In this document: in pieces, positions 3,589 to 15,990 of the stretch
Layout of the letters: each line of letters starts with the position of its first letter
Numbering within the stretch: position 1 is the first letter of the stretch
Source of the DNA: Bacilli bacterium
Lineage (GTDB): Bacteria; Bacillota_I; Bacilli_A; RF39; UBA660
Length of the DNA stretch: 64,000 bases
Assembly: GCA_036667875.1 (NCBI GenBank)
Contig: JAVWTD010000001.1
Span: forward strand, 5,767-69,766
Direction of reading: 5' to 3'
Position numbers and translations under genes: made by a program
Notes under the pieces: model-generated
Databases searched by the model: none
What the model was told of the DNA's origin: nothing
What the model saw: the letters and a program-made list of their open reading frames with translations, nothing else

Positions 3589-3801
3589 TTAAACTAATGC
3601 TGTTTTAATTTCTATTACATTCTTTGCTTGTAGACCTTTGTCAGTTTCTACTAATTCAAATTCGACTATTTGTCCTTCTAATAGGGTTTTATAGCCTTCT
3701 GATGCAATTGCAGAATAATGAATGAAGATATCTTCACCGTTTTTATATTCAATAAAACCATATCCTTTTGAATTGTTAAACCATTTTACTTTTCCACGCA
3801 T
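3589..3801 (-). CDS. csp: cold-shock protein (CspA family)
   Basis: 70 aa, MRGKVKWFNNSKGYGFIE...; RNP1/RNP2-like motifs KGYGFI and FIHYSAI. Confidence 0.9.
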   Translation of the reverse strand: MRGKVKWFNNSKGYGFIEYKNGEDIFIHYSAIASEGYKTLLEGQIVEFELVETDKGLQAKNVIEIKTALV

Positions 3802-3919
3802 TTTAAAATCTCCCTTCTAGTAATTCTCTTACATTTCTAATATACAATACCTAGTTTCCTTTTTCAAGAAATATCAACATACAAAAATCGACATATTTTT
3901 CATTTTTTTAAAATTTGTA

Positions 3920-3950
3920 CATCTTAGACGTTTTCACTATCATCTTAGAC
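3920..3950 (+). promoter_or_regulatory. pair of 10-bp direct repeats CATCTTAGAC with 21-bp periodicity, ~45-70 bp upstream of agrB; candidate LytTR response-regulator binding site
   Basis: CATCTTAGAC at 3920-3929 and 3941-3950, separated by 11 bp. A TATAAAT-like -10 follows near 3983. The geometry matches the known AgrA/ComE/PlnC direct-repeat sites (two repeats, centres two helical turns apart). Confidence 0.45.
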
Positions 3951-3992
3951 ATAACCTATTTATTTTTTTTCTAAAAATGATATCATATAAAT

Positions 3993-4595
3993 ATGAGAGA
4001 AAAAGTTATTGAAAAATATGTTTCATTTCTTCTTAAGTATCATACTTATAGTAGAAAAGAAATACTTACAATCCGATATGGAGTAGAAAATACTTTATTA
4101 TTTTTAGAAAAGATTATTATTATTTTAGTAATAGGATATTTATTAGGAATTTTAAAGATAATGTGTATTTTCATGTTATTTTATATGGGAATTAAGACTT
4201 TCTCTGGTGGGATGCATGCAAGCAGCAGCTTTAGTTGTCTCTTAATTTCTTTAGTTATATTTATTGCATCCCCTATCATTGGAGTACATGTATATTTTAC
4301 ATTATTAGAAAAATTTTTGATATCGTTATTCGTTTTTGCTATATTTCTAATATACAGTCCTGCAGATACTCATAAAAAACCAATTAGAGGTCCTAAAATT
4401 AAAATGCTAAAGATCAAGTCTCTTATAATTATTGATCTTTATTGCATATCTAGTTTTTTCGTTACGAATTATATTGGCAATCTATTAATTATAAGTTTGT
4501 TGGTTCAAGCTTGTATGATATCGCCAATTCCATATAAATTATTTGGATTGCCATATAATAATGGAAGGAGAGAAAAAGATGAAAATTTTAGCTGA
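3993..4595 (+). CDS. agrB: AgrB-family accessory gene regulator protein B (AIP precursor processing peptidase, membrane)
   Basis: 200-aa polytopic membrane protein. The KTFSGGMHASS region resembles the AgrB catalytic His/Cys segment. Its 3' end overlaps a small AgrD-like ORF. Confidence 0.7.
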   Translation: MREKVIEKYVSFLLKYHTYSRKEILTIRYGVENTLLFLEKIIIILVIGYLLGILKIMCIFMLFYMGIKTFSGGMHASSSFSCLLISLVIFIASPIIGVHVYFTLLEKFLISLFVFAIFLIYSPADTHKKPIRGPKIKMLKIKSLIIIDLYCISSFFVTNYIGNLLIISLLVQACMISPIPYKLFGLPYNNGRREKDENFS

Positions 4596-4698
4596 CCTTT
4601 TAGGAAAAATAACTCTATCTTTTGGAACATTAGGTGTTACTTATACTTCATGGTTTGTGTTTGATGAAGCTGAATGTCCAGAAGAAATTAATAACTAA
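4579..4698 (+). CDS. agrD: AgrD-like autoinducing peptide precursor (39 aa), absent from the ORF track
   Basis: GGAAGGAG RBS at 4564-4571, ATG at 4579. Translation: MKILADLLGKITLSFGTLGVTYTSWFVFDEAECPEEINN. It has an amphipathic leader, a hydrophobic core YTSWFVF, and an acidic Pro-containing tail DEAECPEE like the staphylococcal DEVEVPKEL tail. A Ser lies five residues before the acidic tail. Confidence 0.6.
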   Translation: MKILADLLGKITLSFGTLGVTYTSWFVFDEAECPEEINN

Positions 4699-4802
4699 GG
4701 AAATTTAAAAAGTTGCTTATCTTGCAAAAAAAAATTGATGATTGGAATTTTAATTCTTTTCATCAGTTTTTTTATATATAATACTTGTATTAAAAAGAAT
4801 TG

Positions 4803-6149
4803 CTATTTTGTAGTAATTCTTTCTTTTTTAGGATATTTATTATTTTTTTTGTAAATTAATGTAAGTTTAATAACATTACCATATATTTTCCTATTGAGTG
4901 TGTATTGAGGATTCTTTTTTAATAATTCATTTACAATTGTAAGTCCATGTCCTCTACCTTCACCATTTGTAGAATAGCCATCTTGAGTCATTTTTTCTAA
5001 ATCAATTTTTCCTTTAAAGGTATTTGATATTGCAATAATAAAATTTTTGTTTTCTAGGTAGGCTTCTATTCCTAAGTATGGTGCTCTATCTAATTTTTGT
5101 TTTTCTAATTCTTGCATTGCATTATCTACAAGAATATTGAATATTTGAGTAATTTTTGCTCCTTCTGTATCATCGATGTATTCATCAGGTAACTTTCTTA
5201 AATCATCATCTATTTTATAAATTACAAATATATTTTTTCTATGTGCTTCAACTATTTTATTATATATTGCGGATTTTAAACTAAGACAATCTATTTTATA
5301 TGCTTCAAATTTAATATTTTCATCATCTTTTATTTTTTTCTTTTTTTCAAAAGAGTTACCAACTAAATCAATGTAATTTTTAACTTTTTGTTCATTAGTC
5401 ATTGCTCTTATTGTACAAAGAATATTATTGTTTTCATGATTTTTTAATCTGTAATCATCAACCATTTTACAAGCATCTTTTTGTGATATTTTCATCATTT
5501 TTGTATCTTCTTTTAATTCACATTTTTCTTGCTCACTTTTATAAAGATACCCTGCTACCATAAACATTGATAAAAAAGATATAATAGTAAGAAATACATT
5601 AAATAAAATACTATCATGAATAAAGTTTGTTATCAAAAGATATGAAAATATAATTAAAAATGTATAAAGAATAAATAATAATGTTTTACTATTAAATCTT
5701 ATAAATTTCTCTGATAAGAAGTCATAACAAATTTTAAGAAATTTAGTTTTAGACAAAATTAATATTGAAATTAAGAAGACAATGTTAAAGACATCAAGAC
5801 TGTAAGATGCCATAAATTCTACGGTTGTCTTATAACCAAATATAAAAATTATTGATATTGAAGTTAAAAGTTCTATACCGGCTATAAAACAATCTATAAA
5901 GATTATTGAAAAGACTATTTCTTTATTACTTTTTTCATATATTGATTTTATTGCTAAATACATTGCTCCAGTTGTCAAAAAAAATGCAAAATCAGTTATA
6001 TTTACAAAGTATTTTATTGAAGGAACAATTAACATTATTAATGATCCTAATGTAAGTTTAATTAGTTTAGGTTTTTGGTCAAAGAATTCTCCTATTATTA
6101 GAAGTATAATTATATTTCCTATTAAAGTTATTATTGTTGAGAATGGCAT
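4803..6149 (-). CDS. agrC: AgrC-like sensor histidine kinase (polytopic N-terminal sensor, GHKL ATPase C-terminal, HPK10 type)
   Basis: 448 aa. The N-terminal ~200 aa carry 5-6 TM helices. The C-terminus has NGEGRGHGLTIVNELL, a G-box-like ATP-lid. It sits directly upstream of, and overlaps, the LytTR regulator gene. Confidence 0.7.
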   Translation of the reverse strand: MPFSTIITLIGNIIILLIIGEFFDQKPKLIKLTLGSLIMLIVPSIKYFVNITDFAFFLTTGAMYLAIKSIYEKSNKEIVFSIIFIDCFIAGIELLTSISIIFIFGYKTTVEFMASYSLDVFNIVFLISILILSKTKFLKICYDFLSEKFIRFNSKTLLFILYTFLIIFSYLLITNFIHDSILFNVFLTIISFLSMFMVAGYLYKSEQEKCELKEDTKMMKISQKDACKMVDDYRLKNHENNNILCTIRAMTNEQKVKNYIDLVGNSFEKKKKIKDDENIKFEAYKIDCLSLKSAIYNKIVEAHRKNIFVIYKIDDDLRKLPDEYIDDTEGAKITQIFNILVDNAMQELEKQKLDRAPYLGIEAYLENKNFIIAISNTFKGKIDLEKMTQDGYSTNGEGRGHGLTIVNELLKKNPQYTLNRKIYGNVIKLTLIYKKNNKYPKKERITTK

Positions 6150-6853
6150 AATATATCTAACTCCTTTTTATATTTTAATGATAATAGATCTACTTCTAAT
6201 CCTGTATCAAATTTTATACTTTTCTTTTTCTTATTGATAGCTACAATTCTTTTTAAATTAACAAAACCAGATTTGTGAGTTTGAACAAAATTTTCATCAA
6301 AATATCTTCTAACTTCAATTAATGTTTTGCTTATCTCATAAGTTCCATTATCTGTAACTATTTCTGTTTTTCTACTAACATTTTCTCTTGAAATATATAA
6401 AACACTTTGTTGTCTAAAATAATAATTTGTTGATTTAGTAATTATTTCTACTACATCGTTTTTTATATCATTTTTTATTATATAATTTAATACATTTTCT
6501 AATCTATTTTTTGTATCTTTATTCTTTGTTATAAAAGATGTGATAAATAAATCTAAAGTCAATATTTCTTCTGCTGATTTTTCGTGACTGGTTAACATAA
6601 TAATATGACTTTTTAAGTCACGACTTCTTATCTTTCTTGCTGCTTCAATTCCGCTGCCTGTTGGTGTTTCAATATCTAAAATATATATTTTGTTTTTATT
6701 ATTTAAATAAGTTGCATCGTAAAACACTTGATTATAGTCATTGAATTTAGAAATCTTATATTCTATTTTTTCTTTCAATAAATAATCGTCTATTACTTCA
6801 ATAACTTTATCAACATATATATCATTATCATCGCAAATAATAATTTCAAGCAT
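6131..6853 (-). CDS. agrA: LytTR-family response regulator (AgrA/ComE-like)
   Basis: MLEIIICDDNDIYVDKV... is a receiver domain with DD and K residues. The C-terminal ~100 aa (FRQQSVLYISRENVSRKTEIVT...FVQTHKSGFVNL) is typical LytTR. Confidence 0.8.
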   Translation of the reverse strand: MLEIIICDDNDIYVDKVIEVIDDYLLKEKIEYKISKFNDYNQVFYDATYLNNKNKIYILDIETPTGSGIEAARKIRSRDLKSHIIMLTSHEKSAEEILTLDLFITSFITKNKDTKNRLENVLNYIIKNDIKNDVVEIITKSTNYYFRQQSVLYISRENVSRKTEIVTDNGTYEISKTLIEVRRYFDENFVQTHKSGFVNLKRIVAINKKKKSIKFDTGLEVDLLSLKYKKELDILCHSQQ

Positions 6854-7112
6854 AATTTTAACCTCCGTTACAACACCTCATGTTGTTAACTATATTAAGT
6901 GTACATTATTTAGAAGTAAATTACAATATTAAAAAGACATTATATGTATCTTTACATGTCTTTTTTGCCATATAATCTAAAACAGATTATGGGTTTTATA
7001 ACATAATAATTTTAATATTTTTTCTTTTCTTTTAGCAATTAAATTATACCATAATTATAGAGTTGTTTTTATAATTTAACTTATTTTTTTTATAAACAAA
7101 ATAAAAAGGATG

Positions 7113-7763
7113 TTATTTCCATCCTTCATACCAATTTTTAATTTTAGTTTTTCCATTATCAATTATTTCTTTGCTTTTTTCTTTTATTTCATTTCCTTTT
7201 TCTTTTACTTCATCAACGGTTTCTTTATATTTATCTTCTCCTACTTTTTCTATAACTTTTTCTTCTAAAAATTCTTTGGTAGACTTTATTTTTTCTTCTA
7301 CATAGATTAACACTTTTCCTGTTTTATCTTTTGTAGTTTCTTTATAATCTGGAATTTTCTTTTCAATTTTTGAATCAATACTGCTAGTTATATTTAAAAT
7401 TTTAGTTTTTGTTGTTTCATTTAATTCGTCAAAAGTAATCCCTTTTATTTCTCCGTTGTAAAATAAGAAGTCAACCAGGTTCACAAATATCTCTTTAGAA
7501 CCTTCTTTAAGTTTATCGAAACTATTGTTTTCCAAAATTTCATTTACTTCACTTTCTTTTTCTTCGAAGTAGTTTATAACATATTCATCCTTATTTTTGA
7601 TTTCTTCTGATTTATCTACATAATCTGTTATTTCAATAATATCATTTTTTGGTTCATTGTTTTCAATTTCTTTTTTATTTGTACAACCTGTTGTTACTAG
7701 AACAAAGCCTGTTAATATTACAAAAACAATTTTTTTTACATTAACATTTTTCATATTAGTCAC
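7113..7763 (-). CDS. lipoprotein, Lys/Glu-rich, function unknown
   Basis: Signal peptide with lipobox LVTTGC. Highly charged repetitive mature region. Confidence 0.5.
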   Translation of the reverse strand: MTNMKNVNVKKIVFVILTGFVLVTTGCTNKKEIENNEPKNDIIEITDYVDKSEEIKNKDEYVINYFEEKESEVNEILENNSFDKLKEGSKEIFVNLVDFLFYNGEIKGITFDELNETTKTKILNITSSIDSKIEKKIPDYKETTKDKTGKVLIYVEEKIKSTKEFLEEKVIEKVGEDKYKETVDEVKEKGNEIKEKSKEIIDNGKTKIKNWYEGWK

Positions 7764-7781
7764 CTCAGTGATATTGTACTA

Positions 7782-8084
7782 CTAATCATCATTTTTTACA
7801 ATAATATCTTTTATTTCATTTATCATAATTTTTTCATTTTCCATTGTTAGTAAATAATCTTTTGTTTTAGCTATTATTTTTTTGTTTATTACTTTATTTT
7901 CTAATTGAATTTCAACATCCATTTTATAAATATACTTTGACGATTTAAATATTTCTGCTATTTTCTTTTGTATAGATATAGGATTTTCTTTTGATGGTTT
8001 AGGATTTTCACCATAAACATATTTTTTGTTATTCATATTATTTTTAATTACAGTATTTTGAAATACTTTTGGAAGTTTTTTCAT
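7782..8084 (-). CDS. hypothetical protein (100 aa)
   Basis: ORF lies between the SGNH hydrolase and lipoprotein genes with an 18-bp spacing, so it is probably co-transcribed. No motif recognised. Confidence 0.35.
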   Translation of the reverse strand: MKKLPKVFQNTVIKNNMNNKKYVYGENPKPSKENPISIQKKIAEIFKSSKYIYKMDVEIQLENKVINKKIIAKTKDYLLTMENEKIMINEIKDIIVKNDD

Positions 8085-12087: not shown

Positions 12088-12120
12088 AAAAGATATAAAT
12101 TAAATTTATATCTTTTTTTT
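12088..12120. terminator. bidirectional rho-independent terminator between convergent genes
   Basis: AAGATATAAATT/AAATTTATATCTT perfect hairpin, flanked by an A-run upstream and a T-run downstream. Confidence 0.5.
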
Positions 12121-12441
12121 ATCTATGTCATGTACTATATTATAAATGCAAGAATAACTATGTTTTCCATAAAACTTATAAAACTTTCTTATTGATGCTG
12201 ATGATCTGGTATATAACTGTCTAATCTTTTTAATTTCTTCTTCACTTAAAGCGTTGTGAGGTGATTTATTTTTATTTCCATGGTCTAACGAAATTGTTCC
12301 ATTCAAAATTTCATTTTTAAGTTTAAAAAGATATTTAGGATGATATCCAGTTATAACAGAAATTTCTTCATAAGATAAATATGTATCATTAGCAATTTTT
12401 TTATTTATAAGTTTAATAGCTTCTTTTTTATCTTTTTTCAT
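12106..12441 (-). CDS. HTH-domain protein resembling the N-terminal DNA-binding part of a DDE transposase (no catalytic domain; possible IS remnant)
   Basis: GGTGA RBS upstream of ATG at 12441. MKKDKKEAIKLINKK...ISVITGYHPKYLFKLKNEILNGTISLDHGNKNKSPHNALSEEEIKKIRQLY follows a transposase N-terminal HTH/HGNxGxxPxNALSEE pattern. The ORF-track N-terminal extension to 12600 is probably spurious. Confidence 0.35.
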   Translation of the reverse strand: MKKDKKEAIKLINKKIANDTYLSYEEISVITGYHPKYLFKLKNEILNGTISLDHGNKNKSPHNALSEEEIKKIRQLYTRSSASIRKFYKFYGKHSYSCIYNIVHDIDKKKI

Positions 12442-12542
12442 TGTAGTATCACCTATTATAATTGTAACACTAGCTATGTATAATTGCAACAGAAAAGTAA
12501 TAAAATCGAATAAAGATAAATTTAAGGTAATAAATAAAATAG

Positions 12543-12679
12543 TTTTCCACAATATATGTGGAAAACTATTAATTCGTTTGTAGTATAAAGACTTTTCCAC
12601 AGTATTAAAGCATAAATTTTAGTGAAAACAACACTAATATAAGAATAATTAATAGTATAATAATTTTTACTGTGGAAAA
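12543..12679. promoter_or_regulatory. cluster of four DnaA-box-like 9-mers (TTTTCCACA/TGTGGAAAA), including a perfect inverted pair, ~50 kb from oriC
   Basis: TTTTCCACA at 12543-12551 and TGTGGAAAA at 12557-12565 form the palindrome TTTTCCACAATATATGTGGAAAA. Further boxes: TTTTCCACA at 12593-12601 and TGTGGAAAA at 12671-12679. Confidence 0.45.
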
Positions 12680-14632
12680 CTTTCTTGTTTCTTGTTTATT
12701 TGTATTTTCAGATAATTTATTTTCTATTGTTTTTCCTTTGTTTATATTTTCTTTTTCTCCATTATAACCAATAACAAAATATTCTTCATTGTTATTTATG
12801 GATTTATAAATTAAATTCATTATATTTTCAGAAAGAATTTTAATAAATTCTACTTTATATTCATTTTCATCATTGATTTTATCGCTTGGCTTTAAAATAA
12901 TTTCTTTATCTTTTAAACTATATACGTTAATTATGTTTTCTAAAATATTTTTTCTAATTTCATTTTCACATTGGTAAAGATAAAGAGCATTTTTTATGTT
13001 ATATTTCTTTGCTTTTTTGAAACTTTTCGTTATATATTCTAAAGTCTTAAATGGTAATATTTTATCTATTTCATATAAAACATATTTTGAATTGAATTCT
13101 GAAATGTTTTTGTAAGGATTTAGTTCTTTTGAATAAATAATTTTACTTATTACTTTATCGATTAGATGTTCTAAAGTATCAAATTCATAAATTCCTTTAA
13201 AATCAGTTAAAGCATTTTCAAAATAATAAAATTTATCATTTTTAAGATAAACTAAAAAGAAATGTGGATCAGTAATTACTGTTTTATTATCACTATTAAT
13301 TTCAGTGCATATCACAAATCTTTTTACCTTTATATTATTTGCTTCTAAAAAGCAAGCTTCAAATTCAATTTGTTCATTACTACTTGCTACTTCTGAATTA
13401 AAAATATCAAGTGGATAGTTTTGAGAATATATTTTATTTAGTATAAAGTTTGTTGTTGATATGCTTTTTAAAAGTTGTGTGACTTCAATTTGAGTAGGAT
13501 TTATTTCATTTTTATGTTTAGAATAATATTTATTTAAAAAAGCTATGATTTCTGGATTATCGTATGTTATTTTTTTATTATTTCTTCCCTCAATTGATTC
13601 TAAAGCACCAAAAGGTATTTTATATGTTTCCGAGTCTATTTCAACAGTTGTTCCATATTCAATATTATTTGACATATATTTTAATAATGATTCTTCATCT
13701 ACAATTGAGTAACTTCTAAATATTTCTAAAATCTTTTTATTATTATATTTTTTGATAAGGTTAAAATTGTTTTCTATTTTAGTTTTATATATTTTTGCTT
13801 CTTTTTGTTCTAACTCTAAATCAAAAATTTCTTCGATTTTTTTTAATTTCTTATCATCAAAATTTCTATTTATAAATTTTCCTATTTCTTCGTAATAATT
13901 TTTAAATAGACAATCAAGTAATGAATATTTGTCACAGATACAATTATTTAAATAGATATCATTTTCATTTAAGCCTTTAATTTTTTCTGTGTTTAAAAAA
14001 TTTGTAATAGGAAATAATTTAAAATTATTTCCATCACTTATTCCATAGGTATTTAAGCCTATATTATTGTTATCAATTAAAATATTAAATAATATCATTT
14101 TTATATATTCACTTTTAATTATTTTTGAATTTTCAATTGAGAGGGGAATTTCTATTACTTCAATAATATCTTTTGTATTTTTTTCTTTATCCATTTGAAT
14201 AATTTTGTCTATTGTTTTACATTCTTTTTCATTTGATGTTAATAGTATATAATTTTTATTTTCATATTTTATTCTTTTTATATCTACAACATTTAATTCT
14301 AATAGTTTACCAATCTTCATTAAAGCAATCTCTAAATCATTTAAAGTTAGTGATTTATGTGTTTTTAAATATCCCACATTATTATCTACTTCTACTTTTA
14401 TATTTTTTTTGCTTTTTTCTATAATTTTTATTTCTATATTTTTATTTTGATTATATTCATTTTTTTTGTTTTCAATATAAATATGGTTTTTAATGCTTTC
14501 TTCGATTAAATCTTCAATTTCATTTTTTGTATATTCTTTCGATTTAATTTCATTTCTTATTTTATTTTTTTCATCTATTTTTAGTATTGATTTTTCTTTT
14601 AATTTTGTTTCTAAAAATTCTTGATTATTCAT
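12605..14632 (-). CDS. large hypothetical protein (675 aa) with a C-terminal transmembrane anchor
   Basis: Lys/Asn/Glu-rich. The C-terminal KFSTVKIIILLIILILVLFSL is a TM helix. No confident family assignment. Its last codons carry one of the DnaA-box-like motifs. Confidence 0.5.
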   Translation of the reverse strand: MNNQEFLETKLKEKSILKIDEKNKIRNEIKSKEYTKNEIEDLIEESIKNHIYIENKKNEYNQNKNIEIKIIEKSKKNIKVEVDNNVGYLKTHKSLTLNDLEIALMKIGKLLELNVVDIKRIKYENKNYILLTSNEKECKTIDKIIQMDKEKNTKDIIEVIEIPLSIENSKIIKSEYIKMILFNILIDNNNIGLNTYGISDGNNFKLFPITNFLNTEKIKGLNENDIYLNNCICDKYSLLDCLFKNYYEEIGKFINRNFDDKKLKKIEEIFDLELEQKEAKIYKTKIENNFNLIKKYNNKKILEIFRSYSIVDEESLLKYMSNNIEYGTTVEIDSETYKIPFGALESIEGRNNKKITYDNPEIIAFLNKYYSKHKNEINPTQIEVTQLLKSISTTNFILNKIYSQNYPLDIFNSEVASSNEQIEFEACFLEANNIKVKRFVICTEINSDNKTVITDPHFFLVYLKNDKFYYFENALTDFKGIYEFDTLEHLIDKVISKIIYSKELNPYKNISEFNSKYVLYEIDKILPFKTLEYITKSFKKAKKYNIKNALYLYQCENEIRKNILENIINVYSLKDKEIILKPSDKINDENEYKVEFIKILSENIMNLIYKSINNNEEYFVIGYNGEKENINKGKTIENKLSENTNKQETRKFSTVKIIILLIILILVLFSLKFML

Positions 14633-14720: not shown

Positions 14721-15824
14721 TTATTTTAATAAGTTTTTAATCTTTTCCCAAGGAAGATCTAAGTCATCTCTTCCAAAATGTCCATAAGCCGCTAGTTCAT
14801 AATATTTAATATTTAATAAATTCAATTCGTCAATCATGTTTGAAACAGTAAAATCAAAATTTTTAGAAACAAAGTTTTCAATTACATTTTTTGTTACTTT
14901 TTCAGTATTAAATGTTTCTATCATTATTGATATTGGCTTTTCTTTACCTATTGCATAAGATACTTGAATCTCACATTTTTCTGCTAAATCATGGGCTATA
15001 ATATTTTTTGCGACATATCTACAATAATAAGCTGCGGAACGATCAACTTTTGATGGGTCTTTACTGCTTAAACATCCTCCTCCAACTCTTGAATAACCAC
15101 CGTAAGTATCTACTATAATTTTTCTTCCTGTTGTTCCTGAATCACCGAATGAACCTCCGATAACAAATGATCCACTTGTATTTATAAGGAATTTTGTTTT
15201 TTTATCAATTAATTCTTTTGGTATAACTGGCTCAATTATATTTTTAATTATATATTCCTTTAAATATTCTTGTGTAACTTCTTTGTCATGTTGACTTGAT
15301 ATAATAACTGTATCGATTCTTGTTGGTATTCCATTATTATATTCAATAGTTACTTGAGTTTTTCCATCAGGTTTTAAAGGTGATTTATTGTCACTTTTTC
15401 TAACAATTGTCATTTGTTTTGCAAGCTTATTAGCTAGACATATAGGTAATGGCATCAATTCTTTTGTTTCATTACATGCGTAACCAAACATAATTCCTTG
15501 GTCTCCAGCATGTATTTTATTTTTTTCTACTGCTTTGTTGATTTCTTCTGATTGAATTCCAACTTTTACAAGTACTTCATATTTTTCGTTATATCCAATT
15601 TCTTTTATAACGTTTTTAGCAATTTCTTCATAATTTAAATTAGCTTTTGTTTTTGCTTCTCCATATATTAATATAAAATTATCTTTTATGGTAGCTTCTA
15701 CAGCCATTTTGCTGGTTTTGTCAATCATAAGAGCAGTATCTAAAATTTTGTCTGCGATTTTATCACAAATTTTATCTGGATGTCCTTCCGTTACAGATTC
15801 ACTAGTAAAATAATATTTTTCCAT
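14721..15824 (-). CDS. metK: S-adenosylmethionine synthetase
   Basis: FTSESVTEGHPDKICDKIAD, GDQGIMFGYA and GGGAFSGKDP-like motifs. Confidence 0.9.
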   Translation of the reverse strand: MEKYYFTSESVTEGHPDKICDKIADKILDTALMIDKTSKMAVEATIKDNFILIYGEAKTKANLNYEEIAKNVIKEIGYNEKYEVLVKVGIQSEEINKAVEKNKIHAGDQGIMFGYACNETKELMPLPICLANKLAKQMTIVRKSDNKSPLKPDGKTQVTIEYNNGIPTRIDTVIISSQHDKEVTQEYLKEYIIKNIIEPVIPKELIDKKTKFLINTSGSFVIGGSFGDSGTTGRKIIVDTYGGYSRVGGGCLSSKDPSKVDRSAAYYCRYVAKNIIAHDLAEKCEIQVSYAIGKEKPISIMIETFNTEKVTKNVIENFVSKNFDFTVSNMIDELNLLNIKYYELAAYGHFGRDDLDLPWEKIKNLLK

Positions 15825-15844: not shown

Positions 15845-15990
15845 ATCAAAAAAAACTCTTAAGAAAGAGTTTTACGTACCTTTATAAATACTTCTTTCTT
15901 ATCGTTATTAGCTGTACCACCTTGCTTATTGCAGGTTGGTGTGAGATCTTAGAGCTAATTCTCTCCCTCACTCTTGATAAAAGTTATATC
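15845..15990 (-). promoter_or_regulatory. SAM-I (S-box) riboswitch with intrinsic terminator in the metK leader
   Basis: Reverse strand reads CUUUUAUCAAGAGUGAGGGAGAG..GCUCU..CACACCAACCUGCAAUAAGCAAGGUGGUACAGCUAAUAACGAUAAGAAAG, matching the S-box consensus UUAUCAAGAG.GG.GGAGGGA...CAACC...GGUGCUAA...GAUAAG. It is followed by AAAACUCUUUCUUAAGAGUUUUUUUU. Confidence 0.8.

Follow-up and report, generated by a model that had tools for sequence, protein, structure and literature searches.

An agr-type quorum-sensing locus with convergent agrBD and agrCA-like halves and a predicted lactone signal in uncultured, AT-rich Bacilli

Agr-type quorum-sensing loci have been described in several arrangements. 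In Staphylococcus aureus agrBDCA the genes share one P2 transcript, and P3 and RNAIII complete the system. The His77/Cys84 dyad defines the catalytic pair of its AgrB (PMC10482373). Clostridial loci have been described with agrBD only, with agrBD and agrCA in two distinct operons, or with agrACDB (PMC12312760, PMC10301443, PMC3754575), and AgrD of the Clostridium acetobutylicum type gives a six-residue ring, [CVLVTL] (PMC12312760, PMC10301443). Serine closes the ring as a lactone in the autoinducers RIPT[STGFF] of Staphylococcus pseudintermedius, NSA[SSWVA] of C. difficile agr2 and GBAP of Enterococcus faecalis (PMC12312760). Here we analyse a 64-kb stretch of a Bacilli bacterium contig (JAVWTD010000001.1; G+C ~24%), hereafter the window, in which agrB and agrD converge on genes for an AgrC-like kinase and a regulator with receiver (REC) and LytTR domains. 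We assign a probability of about 0.8 to the reading that these genes form a functional agr-type cyclic-peptide quorum-sensing circuit of two convergent operons, wired as set out below. The locus is a fairly ordinary four-gene agr switch whose main oddity is serine or threonine in place of the ring-forming cysteine, and it leaves the general understanding of agr systems unchanged; what sets it apart is its predicted lactone-type core, its predicted leaderless and auto-induced agrBD, its lineage and a predicted family-level link to a cold-shock gene, csp.

The four open reading frames (ORFs) lie exactly at the coordinates and on the strands given in an earlier note on this DNA (Table 1), and the gene identities and the convergent agrBD/agrCA layout proposed there are correct: in Pfam, NCBIfam and Protein Data Bank (PDB) sequence searches each ORF matches its own family. 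AgrB, labelled by NCBI as an 'accessory gene regulator B family protein', has ~4–6 hydrophobic segments, and its His75 and Cys82 are invariant in a 26-sequence alignment (A1), with a seven-residue spacing equal to that of the S. aureus dyad. The AgrB profile gave chance matches only against PDB sequences and, there being no structural anchor in the PDB, the active site is taken from alignment A1 and the literature. The sole PDB sequence matches of the kinase are to S. aureus AgrC (6e52 and 4bxi; E 1e-4). Its segment KNHENNNIL aligns with the AgrC H-box, His237 being the aligned residue, and the N-terminal ~200 residues are polytopic, with ~6–7 hydrophobic segments. The regulator matches ComE (4cbv) over its full length, and its ILDIE (Asp60), LTS (Thr88) and TK (Lys110) segments align with the receiver motifs of a solved response regulator; Asp60 is the probable phospho-acceptor. 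Because its top NCBIfam match, AgrA, scores 35 bits on an equivalog model with a 400-bit cutoff, we call the regulator AgrA-like and, by NCBI's rule, not an AgrA orthologue. No second agr, kinase or LytTR copy is present within the 64 kb. At the sequence level every feature of an agr system is found save the ring cysteine, which appears to have been replaced by residues with known (serine) or no known (threonine) precedent.

Like S. aureus agr, the locus has the same four components, the AgrB His/Cys dyad, an AgrC-type kinase, an AgrD whose N-terminus is amphipathic and whose acidic tail reads D-E-x-E-x-P, and a REC and LytTR regulator with paired direct repeats (in agr systems ~9-10 bp each with a 12-bp spacer) at ~21-bp spacing upstream of the agrB promoter, the arrangement of autoinduction, which in the window is a likeness at the level of sequence. 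Unlike it, the locus is divided into two convergent operons in place of a single P2 transcript, for which reason only agrBD is predicted to be auto-induced. It is also without an RNAIII-like gene (none was found) and a divergent P3 box pair, carries serine or threonine for cysteine in the AgrD core, has an agrB mRNA that is predicted to be leaderless, and shows very low identities. The separate transcription of agrBD and agrCA recalls C. acetobutylicum-type agr, as does the C-x5-[DY]EP spacing in AgrDs of the window's relatives, which predicts six-residue rings; however, the papers list the order BDCA where the window converges (PMC12312760, PMC10301443), no LanM or LanC domains are found in the window ORFs past the regulator, and the window peptide has threonine for cysteine. 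Read from its regulator end, the window has the positional order A-C-D-B of C. difficile agr2 (agrACDB), but that locus is reported to be probably a single transcript (PMC3754575) and belongs to a Clostridium-class pathogen, and no sequence-level closeness to it was found.

Table 1. Positions in the window of the agr-type genes, their putative control elements and the divergent neighbour.
Feature	Position	Strand	Description
csp (cold-shock domain protein)	3589-3801	-	70 aa; PF00313; conserved divergent neighbour of agrB
Direct-repeat box pair	3920-3951	+	CATCTTAGAC-N11-CATCTTAGAC, then A; predicted regulator (LytTR) site activating agrBD
Predicted extended -10	3978-3986	+	TGaTATCAT; TATCAT 3981-3986, TG 3978-3979; 29 nt after proximal box
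agrB	3993-4595	+	200 aa; Pfam AgrB PF04647, 101 bits vs cutoff 23
agrD	4579-4698	+	39 aa; TIGR04223; own Shine-Dalgarno sequence inside agrB
Bidirectional intrinsic terminator hairpin	4728-4773	both	Inverted repeat, 22-nt arms; flanked by A-run and T-run
agrC-like sensor histidine kinase (HPK10 type)	4803-6149	-	448 aa; HATPase_c_5 (GHKL) by Pfam
agrA-like response regulator (REC + LytTR)	6131-6853	-	240 aa; Pfam Response_reg and LytTR; GGAGG Shine-Dalgarno sequence upstream
Spacer with candidate regulator-kinase promoter(s)	6854-7112	-	Promoter-like sites; no LytTR boxes
AT-rich hairpin (AAAAAGACAT / ATGTCTTTTT)	6931-6965	-	10-bp stem; -9.6 kcal/mol, z -2.6
Terminator-like hairpin	7105-7127	-	End of upstream lipoprotein-like gene (7113-7763); 8 pairs then T-run

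The exact AgrB sequence occurs on 18 contigs from NCBI metagenome-assembled genomes (MAGs) named 'Bacilli bacterium'; the source is no Clostridium. At least six independent MAG contigs carry the four ORFs intact, and the public gene calls for six near-identical contigs agree on the five gene models, that of csp among them; the MAG copies of the locus are nearly identical and too alike for a selection test. The next-best AgrB in a collection of 5.8 billion proteins is only 42% identical, which places the window species on an isolated branch. A profile scan at one genome per species found 140 relatives, the best 80 of which were kept; its pattern required PYNNY in AgrB, and the window's own species, which has PYNNG, therefore falls outside the scan. 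By their record titles the relatives are uncultured Bacilli, Mollicutes or Tenericutes; Candidatus Pelethosoma (Mycoplasmatota incertae sedis) is among them, and one of their contigs, of 1.2 Mb, is labelled circular.

Kinase and regulator genes converge on agrBD in 71 of the 80 loci, and a convergent kinase gene stands at the contig end in two more; six loci are too short for the layout to be called, and one (L040) has agrBD with no adjacent kinase or regulator. The convergent layout thus held in 73 of 74 informative species-level relatives. In the loci examined closely the cold-shock gene is divergent and upstream of agrB, giving the synteny csp / agrBD >< agrCA, and locus L007 also has secA and hpf beyond csp, the same as the window; the genes past the regulator vary among relatives, being a cation ATPase or FeoAB. 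Since the layout is kept in relatives of the lineage, we regard it as a trait that was vertically inherited here and not imported from clostridia. The statement in the earlier note that clostridial agr loci usually converge was not confirmed: the papers cited here describe other arrangements (PMC12312760, PMC10301443, PMC3754575), and our literature search returned no usable statement that convergent agr loci typify clostridia and nothing usable on agr in RF39-type bacteria. A complete peptide quorum-sensing circuit would thus be kept at a fixed chromosomal site beside csp in an uncultured, AT-rich, Bacilli/Mollicutes-like lineage. Variants on the layout are also seen: loci L020, L061 and L089 have two tandem AgrC-like kinase genes, not one, between agrD and the regulator gene, and in L040 zinc-ribbon membrane proteins and a receiver-domain protein are encoded downstream of agrBD (5285-7910).

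In the circuit that we propose, largely from what is known of the family, AgrB would act as a membrane Cys/His peptidase that removes the acidic AgrD tail, after ...SWFVF and before DEAECPEEINN, and transfers the acyl group onto a nucleophilic side chain of AgrD, and a second protease would have to trim the N-terminal leader. The extracellular peptide would be sensed by the polytopic AgrC-like kinase, which would phosphorylate the regulator on Asp60. The phosphorylated regulator would in turn bind the box pair and activate the promoter whose predicted extended -10 lies downstream of it, so that the agrB-agrD mRNA would be leaderless and only signal production would come under positive feedback. 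The kinase/regulator operon would be read from a box-less and probably constitutive promoter of its own in 6854-7112, and both operons would end at the shared bidirectional terminator. Beyond this loop the window shows no targets.

The repeat at 3920-3950, which had been singled out before, is real and is likely to be a LytTR site. Its two copies of CATCTTAGAC are perfect (10 of 10 positions) and lie 21 bp apart from start to start, and the search for further copies that the earlier note had suggested, run over the 64 kb, gave no other match even with 3 mismatches, nor did any of 100 shuffles match. In relatives the motif TG[TC]NT[GA]AAA[TC] occurs as a pair with 21-bp spacing, upstream of agrB or csp, and the reverse complement of the window boxes, [TC]GTCTAAGAT, fits this motif. 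A same-orientation alignment of the window boxes to the relatives' TGTCTGAAAT repeats was rejected, as the invariant TG is mismatched and the position weight matrix (PWM) score is -4.8 versus +14.6 for the reverse complement.

All box pairs were set in one direction, with the motif as ATTTCAGACA, and a -10-like hexamer then lies 29/30 nt downstream of the proximal box in 14 of 15 agrB-directed pairs and in 27 of 31 csp-directed pairs (control side 2/15 and 7/31, respectively). Box orientation and -10 offset are common to 41 of 46 promoters in the relatives, where the hexamer is often TG-extended, and this offset test is independent of the PWM because the -10 played no part in choosing the pairs. 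The -10 predicted in the window has the same geometry; TAAAAA(T) at 3972-3978 was also considered as a -10 and rejected, its offset being 20-21 whereas the family promoters use 29-30. The rule box-N11-box, 29-30 nt, -10 may predict direct targets of this regulator family in hundreds of MAGs, and its searchable form is [AT]TCTTAGAC-N11-[AT]TCTTAGAC followed by a -10 at 29-30 nt.

The agrB ATG (3993) is the seventh base after the -10, no Shine-Dalgarno (SD) sequence precedes it, and the AgrB N-terminus aligns with those of its homologues. With the -10 just before the ATG and no SD, the agrB-agrD mRNA is predicted to be leaderless. In the relatives agrB has a leader of ~12 nt (19 nt from -10 to ATG) with GGAGG. 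No box pair was found upstream of the window regulator gene by either exact search or family PWM, and it is on this account that positive feedback is predicted for signal production alone. A pair stands upstream of the regulator gene in just 5 of the 74 relatives, in a non-activating orientation. These five loci (L015, L028, L046, L048 and L070; for example L048 7366-7400) belong to a subclade in which the pair is strong and points away, into the 3' end of the cation-ATPase gene, and no -10 is present at the usual offset.

In ~30 relatives a second box pair is found ~160-170 nt upstream of the csp ATG, aimed at csp and with the same 29-30-nt geometry. This suggests that in the relatives the agr-like regulator acts directly on csp as a conserved target, an output to which the promoter rule itself points, and the arrangement resembles S. 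aureus P2/P3 with csp in RNAIII's place. The csp-agrB region of the window (3802-3992) holds no csp-directed box pair, its sole pair pointing to agrB; the spacer is 185 bp versus ~300 in the relatives, and only a proximal promoter, TTGAAA-17-TATATT (3867-3839), serves csp. No RNA was found in this spacer with Rfam, and the literature search gave nothing usable on AgrA control of csp. The csp-side pairs (L021, L025, L026, L029, L039, L073, L078, L086, L088, L090 and ~20 more) are accompanied by an extended -10, TGnTAnAAT, ~130 nt upstream of the csp ATG. Separately, (A/T)TTCGACA(A/T) is conserved upstream of csp in almost every relative and lies at 3884-3895 in the window; it may belong to a csp 5' leader.

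The window AgrD reads MKILADLLGKITLSFGTLGVTYTSWFVF up to its tail, DEAECPEEINN. It matches the NCBIfam family 'AgrD family cyclic lactone autoinducer peptide' (26.6 bits versus a cutoff of 19) and has no Pfam match (E<=0.01), and DEAECP in its tail aligns with the DEPE[CM]P of the family. Its gene shares 17 nt with the 3' end of agrB, and GGAAGGAGAG stands 6 nt upstream of the agrD ATG. In agr systems the ring is closed by cysteine, as a thiolactone, or by serine, as a lactone, at four to five residues ahead of where AgrB cuts. The predicted core, [SWFVF] or [TSWFVF], is free of cysteine: in ...GVTYT-S-W-F-V-F, serine occupies position -5 and threonine position -6 from the DE tail. Of 83 family AgrDs, 75 have cysteine at exactly six residues before the tail, [DE]E-x-x-x-P, and 6 have it at seven, and 2, the window peptide and that of locus L025, have none in the core. 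The dominant spacing matches that of the C. acetobutylicum six-residue ring. The peptide of L025, ...KATPWLWF followed by DEPETP, has threonine at the cysteine position and no serine nearby. The kinase gene of that locus is in two ORFs (L025 4717-6028), being a pseudogene or else the result of an error in the MAG assembly.

Because its AgrD core is without cysteine, the window autoinducer is predicted to be a lactone. The form that we consider most likely, at somewhat better than even odds, is the five-residue Ser-lactone [SWFVF] with a short N-terminal tail, which we judge roughly twice as probable as a Thr-lactone. Such a product would share with the C. difficile agr2 peptide a serine-based lactone and a Ser-x-W core (PMC12312760). 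The S. pseudintermedius peptide and GBAP are likewise Ser-lactones, made by AgrB/FsrB-type enzymes, and TYT[SWFVF] resembles them in its Thr-Ser junction and in the aromatic residues at the C-terminal side of the ring; they differ in that their operons are agrBDCA and fsrABDC and that the GBAP ring has 9 residues.

The nucleophile could instead be the threonine at the family's cysteine position (-6), giving a six-residue Thr-lactone, [TSWFVF], that keeps the ring size of the relatives. We hold this to be possible and the less probable outcome. Both cysteine-less peptides have threonine exactly where 75 of the 83 AgrDs have cysteine, L025 offers no nearby serine, and six-residue rings are established for the C. 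acetobutylicum type (PMC12312760, PMC10301443). However, no Thr-lactone autoinducing peptide turned up in the literature search, and Ser -5 yields the canonical five-residue ring in a Thr-Ser context like that of RIPT[STGFF]. Moreover, L025, the sole support for the use of threonine, has a disrupted kinase, and on general chemical grounds a secondary alcohol is the poorer nucleophile. Unlikely as a joint proposition is the wider scenario of a six-residue Thr-lactone macrocycle from a deeply branching agr family that is syntenic in uncultured Mollicutes-like Bacilli and has a P3-like csp promoter instead of RNAIII, with the window genome having lost the csp output and kept only the leaderless, self-inducing agrBD loop. 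The Ser-lactone with its TYT tail, TYT[SWFVF], and the [TSWFVF] lactone are concrete, synthesisable candidate signals for an organism represented by MAGs only.

Several observations weigh against a functional circuit. AgrB has lysine at position 68, where arginine is nearly invariant in alignment A1, and PYNNG where the family has PYNNY. The window AgrD is the most deviant of the 83 compared, with no cysteine and a tail of PEEINN versus the family's PKSLIK, and the only other cysteine-less AgrD, that of L025, adjoins the split kinase gene. As for the boxes, their family-PWM score of 14.6 lies within the range of shuffled sequence, which gives ~2 PWM pairs per 64 kb, so that the PWM alone is weak evidence, and the matrix was derived from the same loci that it describes; we would place the case for the boxes on their perfect duplication, position and geometry and not on the score.

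These deviations could mark a decaying or signal-blind remnant in which loss of the ring cysteine ended cyclisation and the genes persist by recency, as might be expected of an AgrB/AgrD pair more divergent than any other in the family, with its nearest AgrB at 42% identity, AgrB changes at otherwise nearly invariant positions, and a broken kinase in the other cysteine-less locus. We nevertheless consider a remnant improbable. The four ORFs are full length with their catalytic and phospho-transfer residues intact, the -10 lies at the correct offset from two boxes that match each other perfectly, and agrD and the kinase and regulator genes each have an SD. That the nearest relative is only 42% identical implies a long evolution apart in which the ORFs did not decay, and Ser-lactone systems are functional elsewhere (PMC12312760).

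That the agrBD and agrCA-like halves are separate transcription units is supported by predicted terminators bracketing both. The hairpin in the 104-bp convergent spacer has a minimum free energy of -20.8 kcal/mol (z -3.5) on the plus strand, and on the minus strand the same stem (-12 kcal/mol) is followed by U9. The hairpin at 7127-7105 (-11.3 kcal/mol, z -2.9) is predicted to insulate the agrCA-like operon from read-through. Within this operon the kinase and regulator genes share 19 nt, and the kinase gene has its own GGAG, 11 nt upstream of the ATG. Because the lipoprotein-like gene upstream ends in a terminator-like hairpin, the regulator-kinase operon needs a promoter of its own in 6854-7112, as had been suggested. 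Such a promoter is plausible, several promoter-like sites following the hairpin, and its position is less certain, with several candidates and none singled out: an extended -10, TGGTATAAT, lies at 7051-7043 on the minus strand, and weaker candidate sites lie nearer the gene.

Expression of kinase and regulator by read-through from the lipoprotein-like gene, with no promoter of their own, would fit the minus-strand orientation of all these genes and the sigma-70 matches in the 259-bp spacer, which are weak to moderate and no more numerous than in shuffles. We think it improbable in view of the hairpin with its T-run and the extended -10 beyond it, and because the relatives, in which the upstream genes differ, often have TGnTAnAAT in the 250 nt before the regulator gene (36 of 74). 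The AT-rich hairpin listed in Table 1 sits between the candidate promoters and the regulator gene and may be an attenuator, a processing site or chance.

The adjacent genes at 7.1-12.1 kb (a lipoprotein-like ORF, two GDSL/SGNH hydrolases and a DUF368/VCA0040-like protein), which the earlier note had put forward as the regulon, are envelope-related by Pfam and physically close but make an improbable direct output, since no box pair other than that of agrB exists in the 64 kb by exact search (<=3 mismatches) or family PWM, a terminator divides them from the regulator operon, relatives carry an unrelated cation ATPase or FeoAB there, and the relatives' conserved second target, csp, is on the opposite side; not syntenic in relatives and insulated by the terminator, the cluster is rated unsupported.

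Two ORFs without a Pfam match, apparently lineage-specific orphans, adjoin the envelope cluster on the minus strand (12106-12600 and 12605-14632); the second encodes 675 residues that are very rich in K, N, I and E and has a C-terminal hydrophobic segment. Farther along the same strand, a SAM riboswitch (S box, 56.5 bits; 15896-15983) lies directly upstream of metK, the S-adenosylmethionine synthetase gene (14721-15824).

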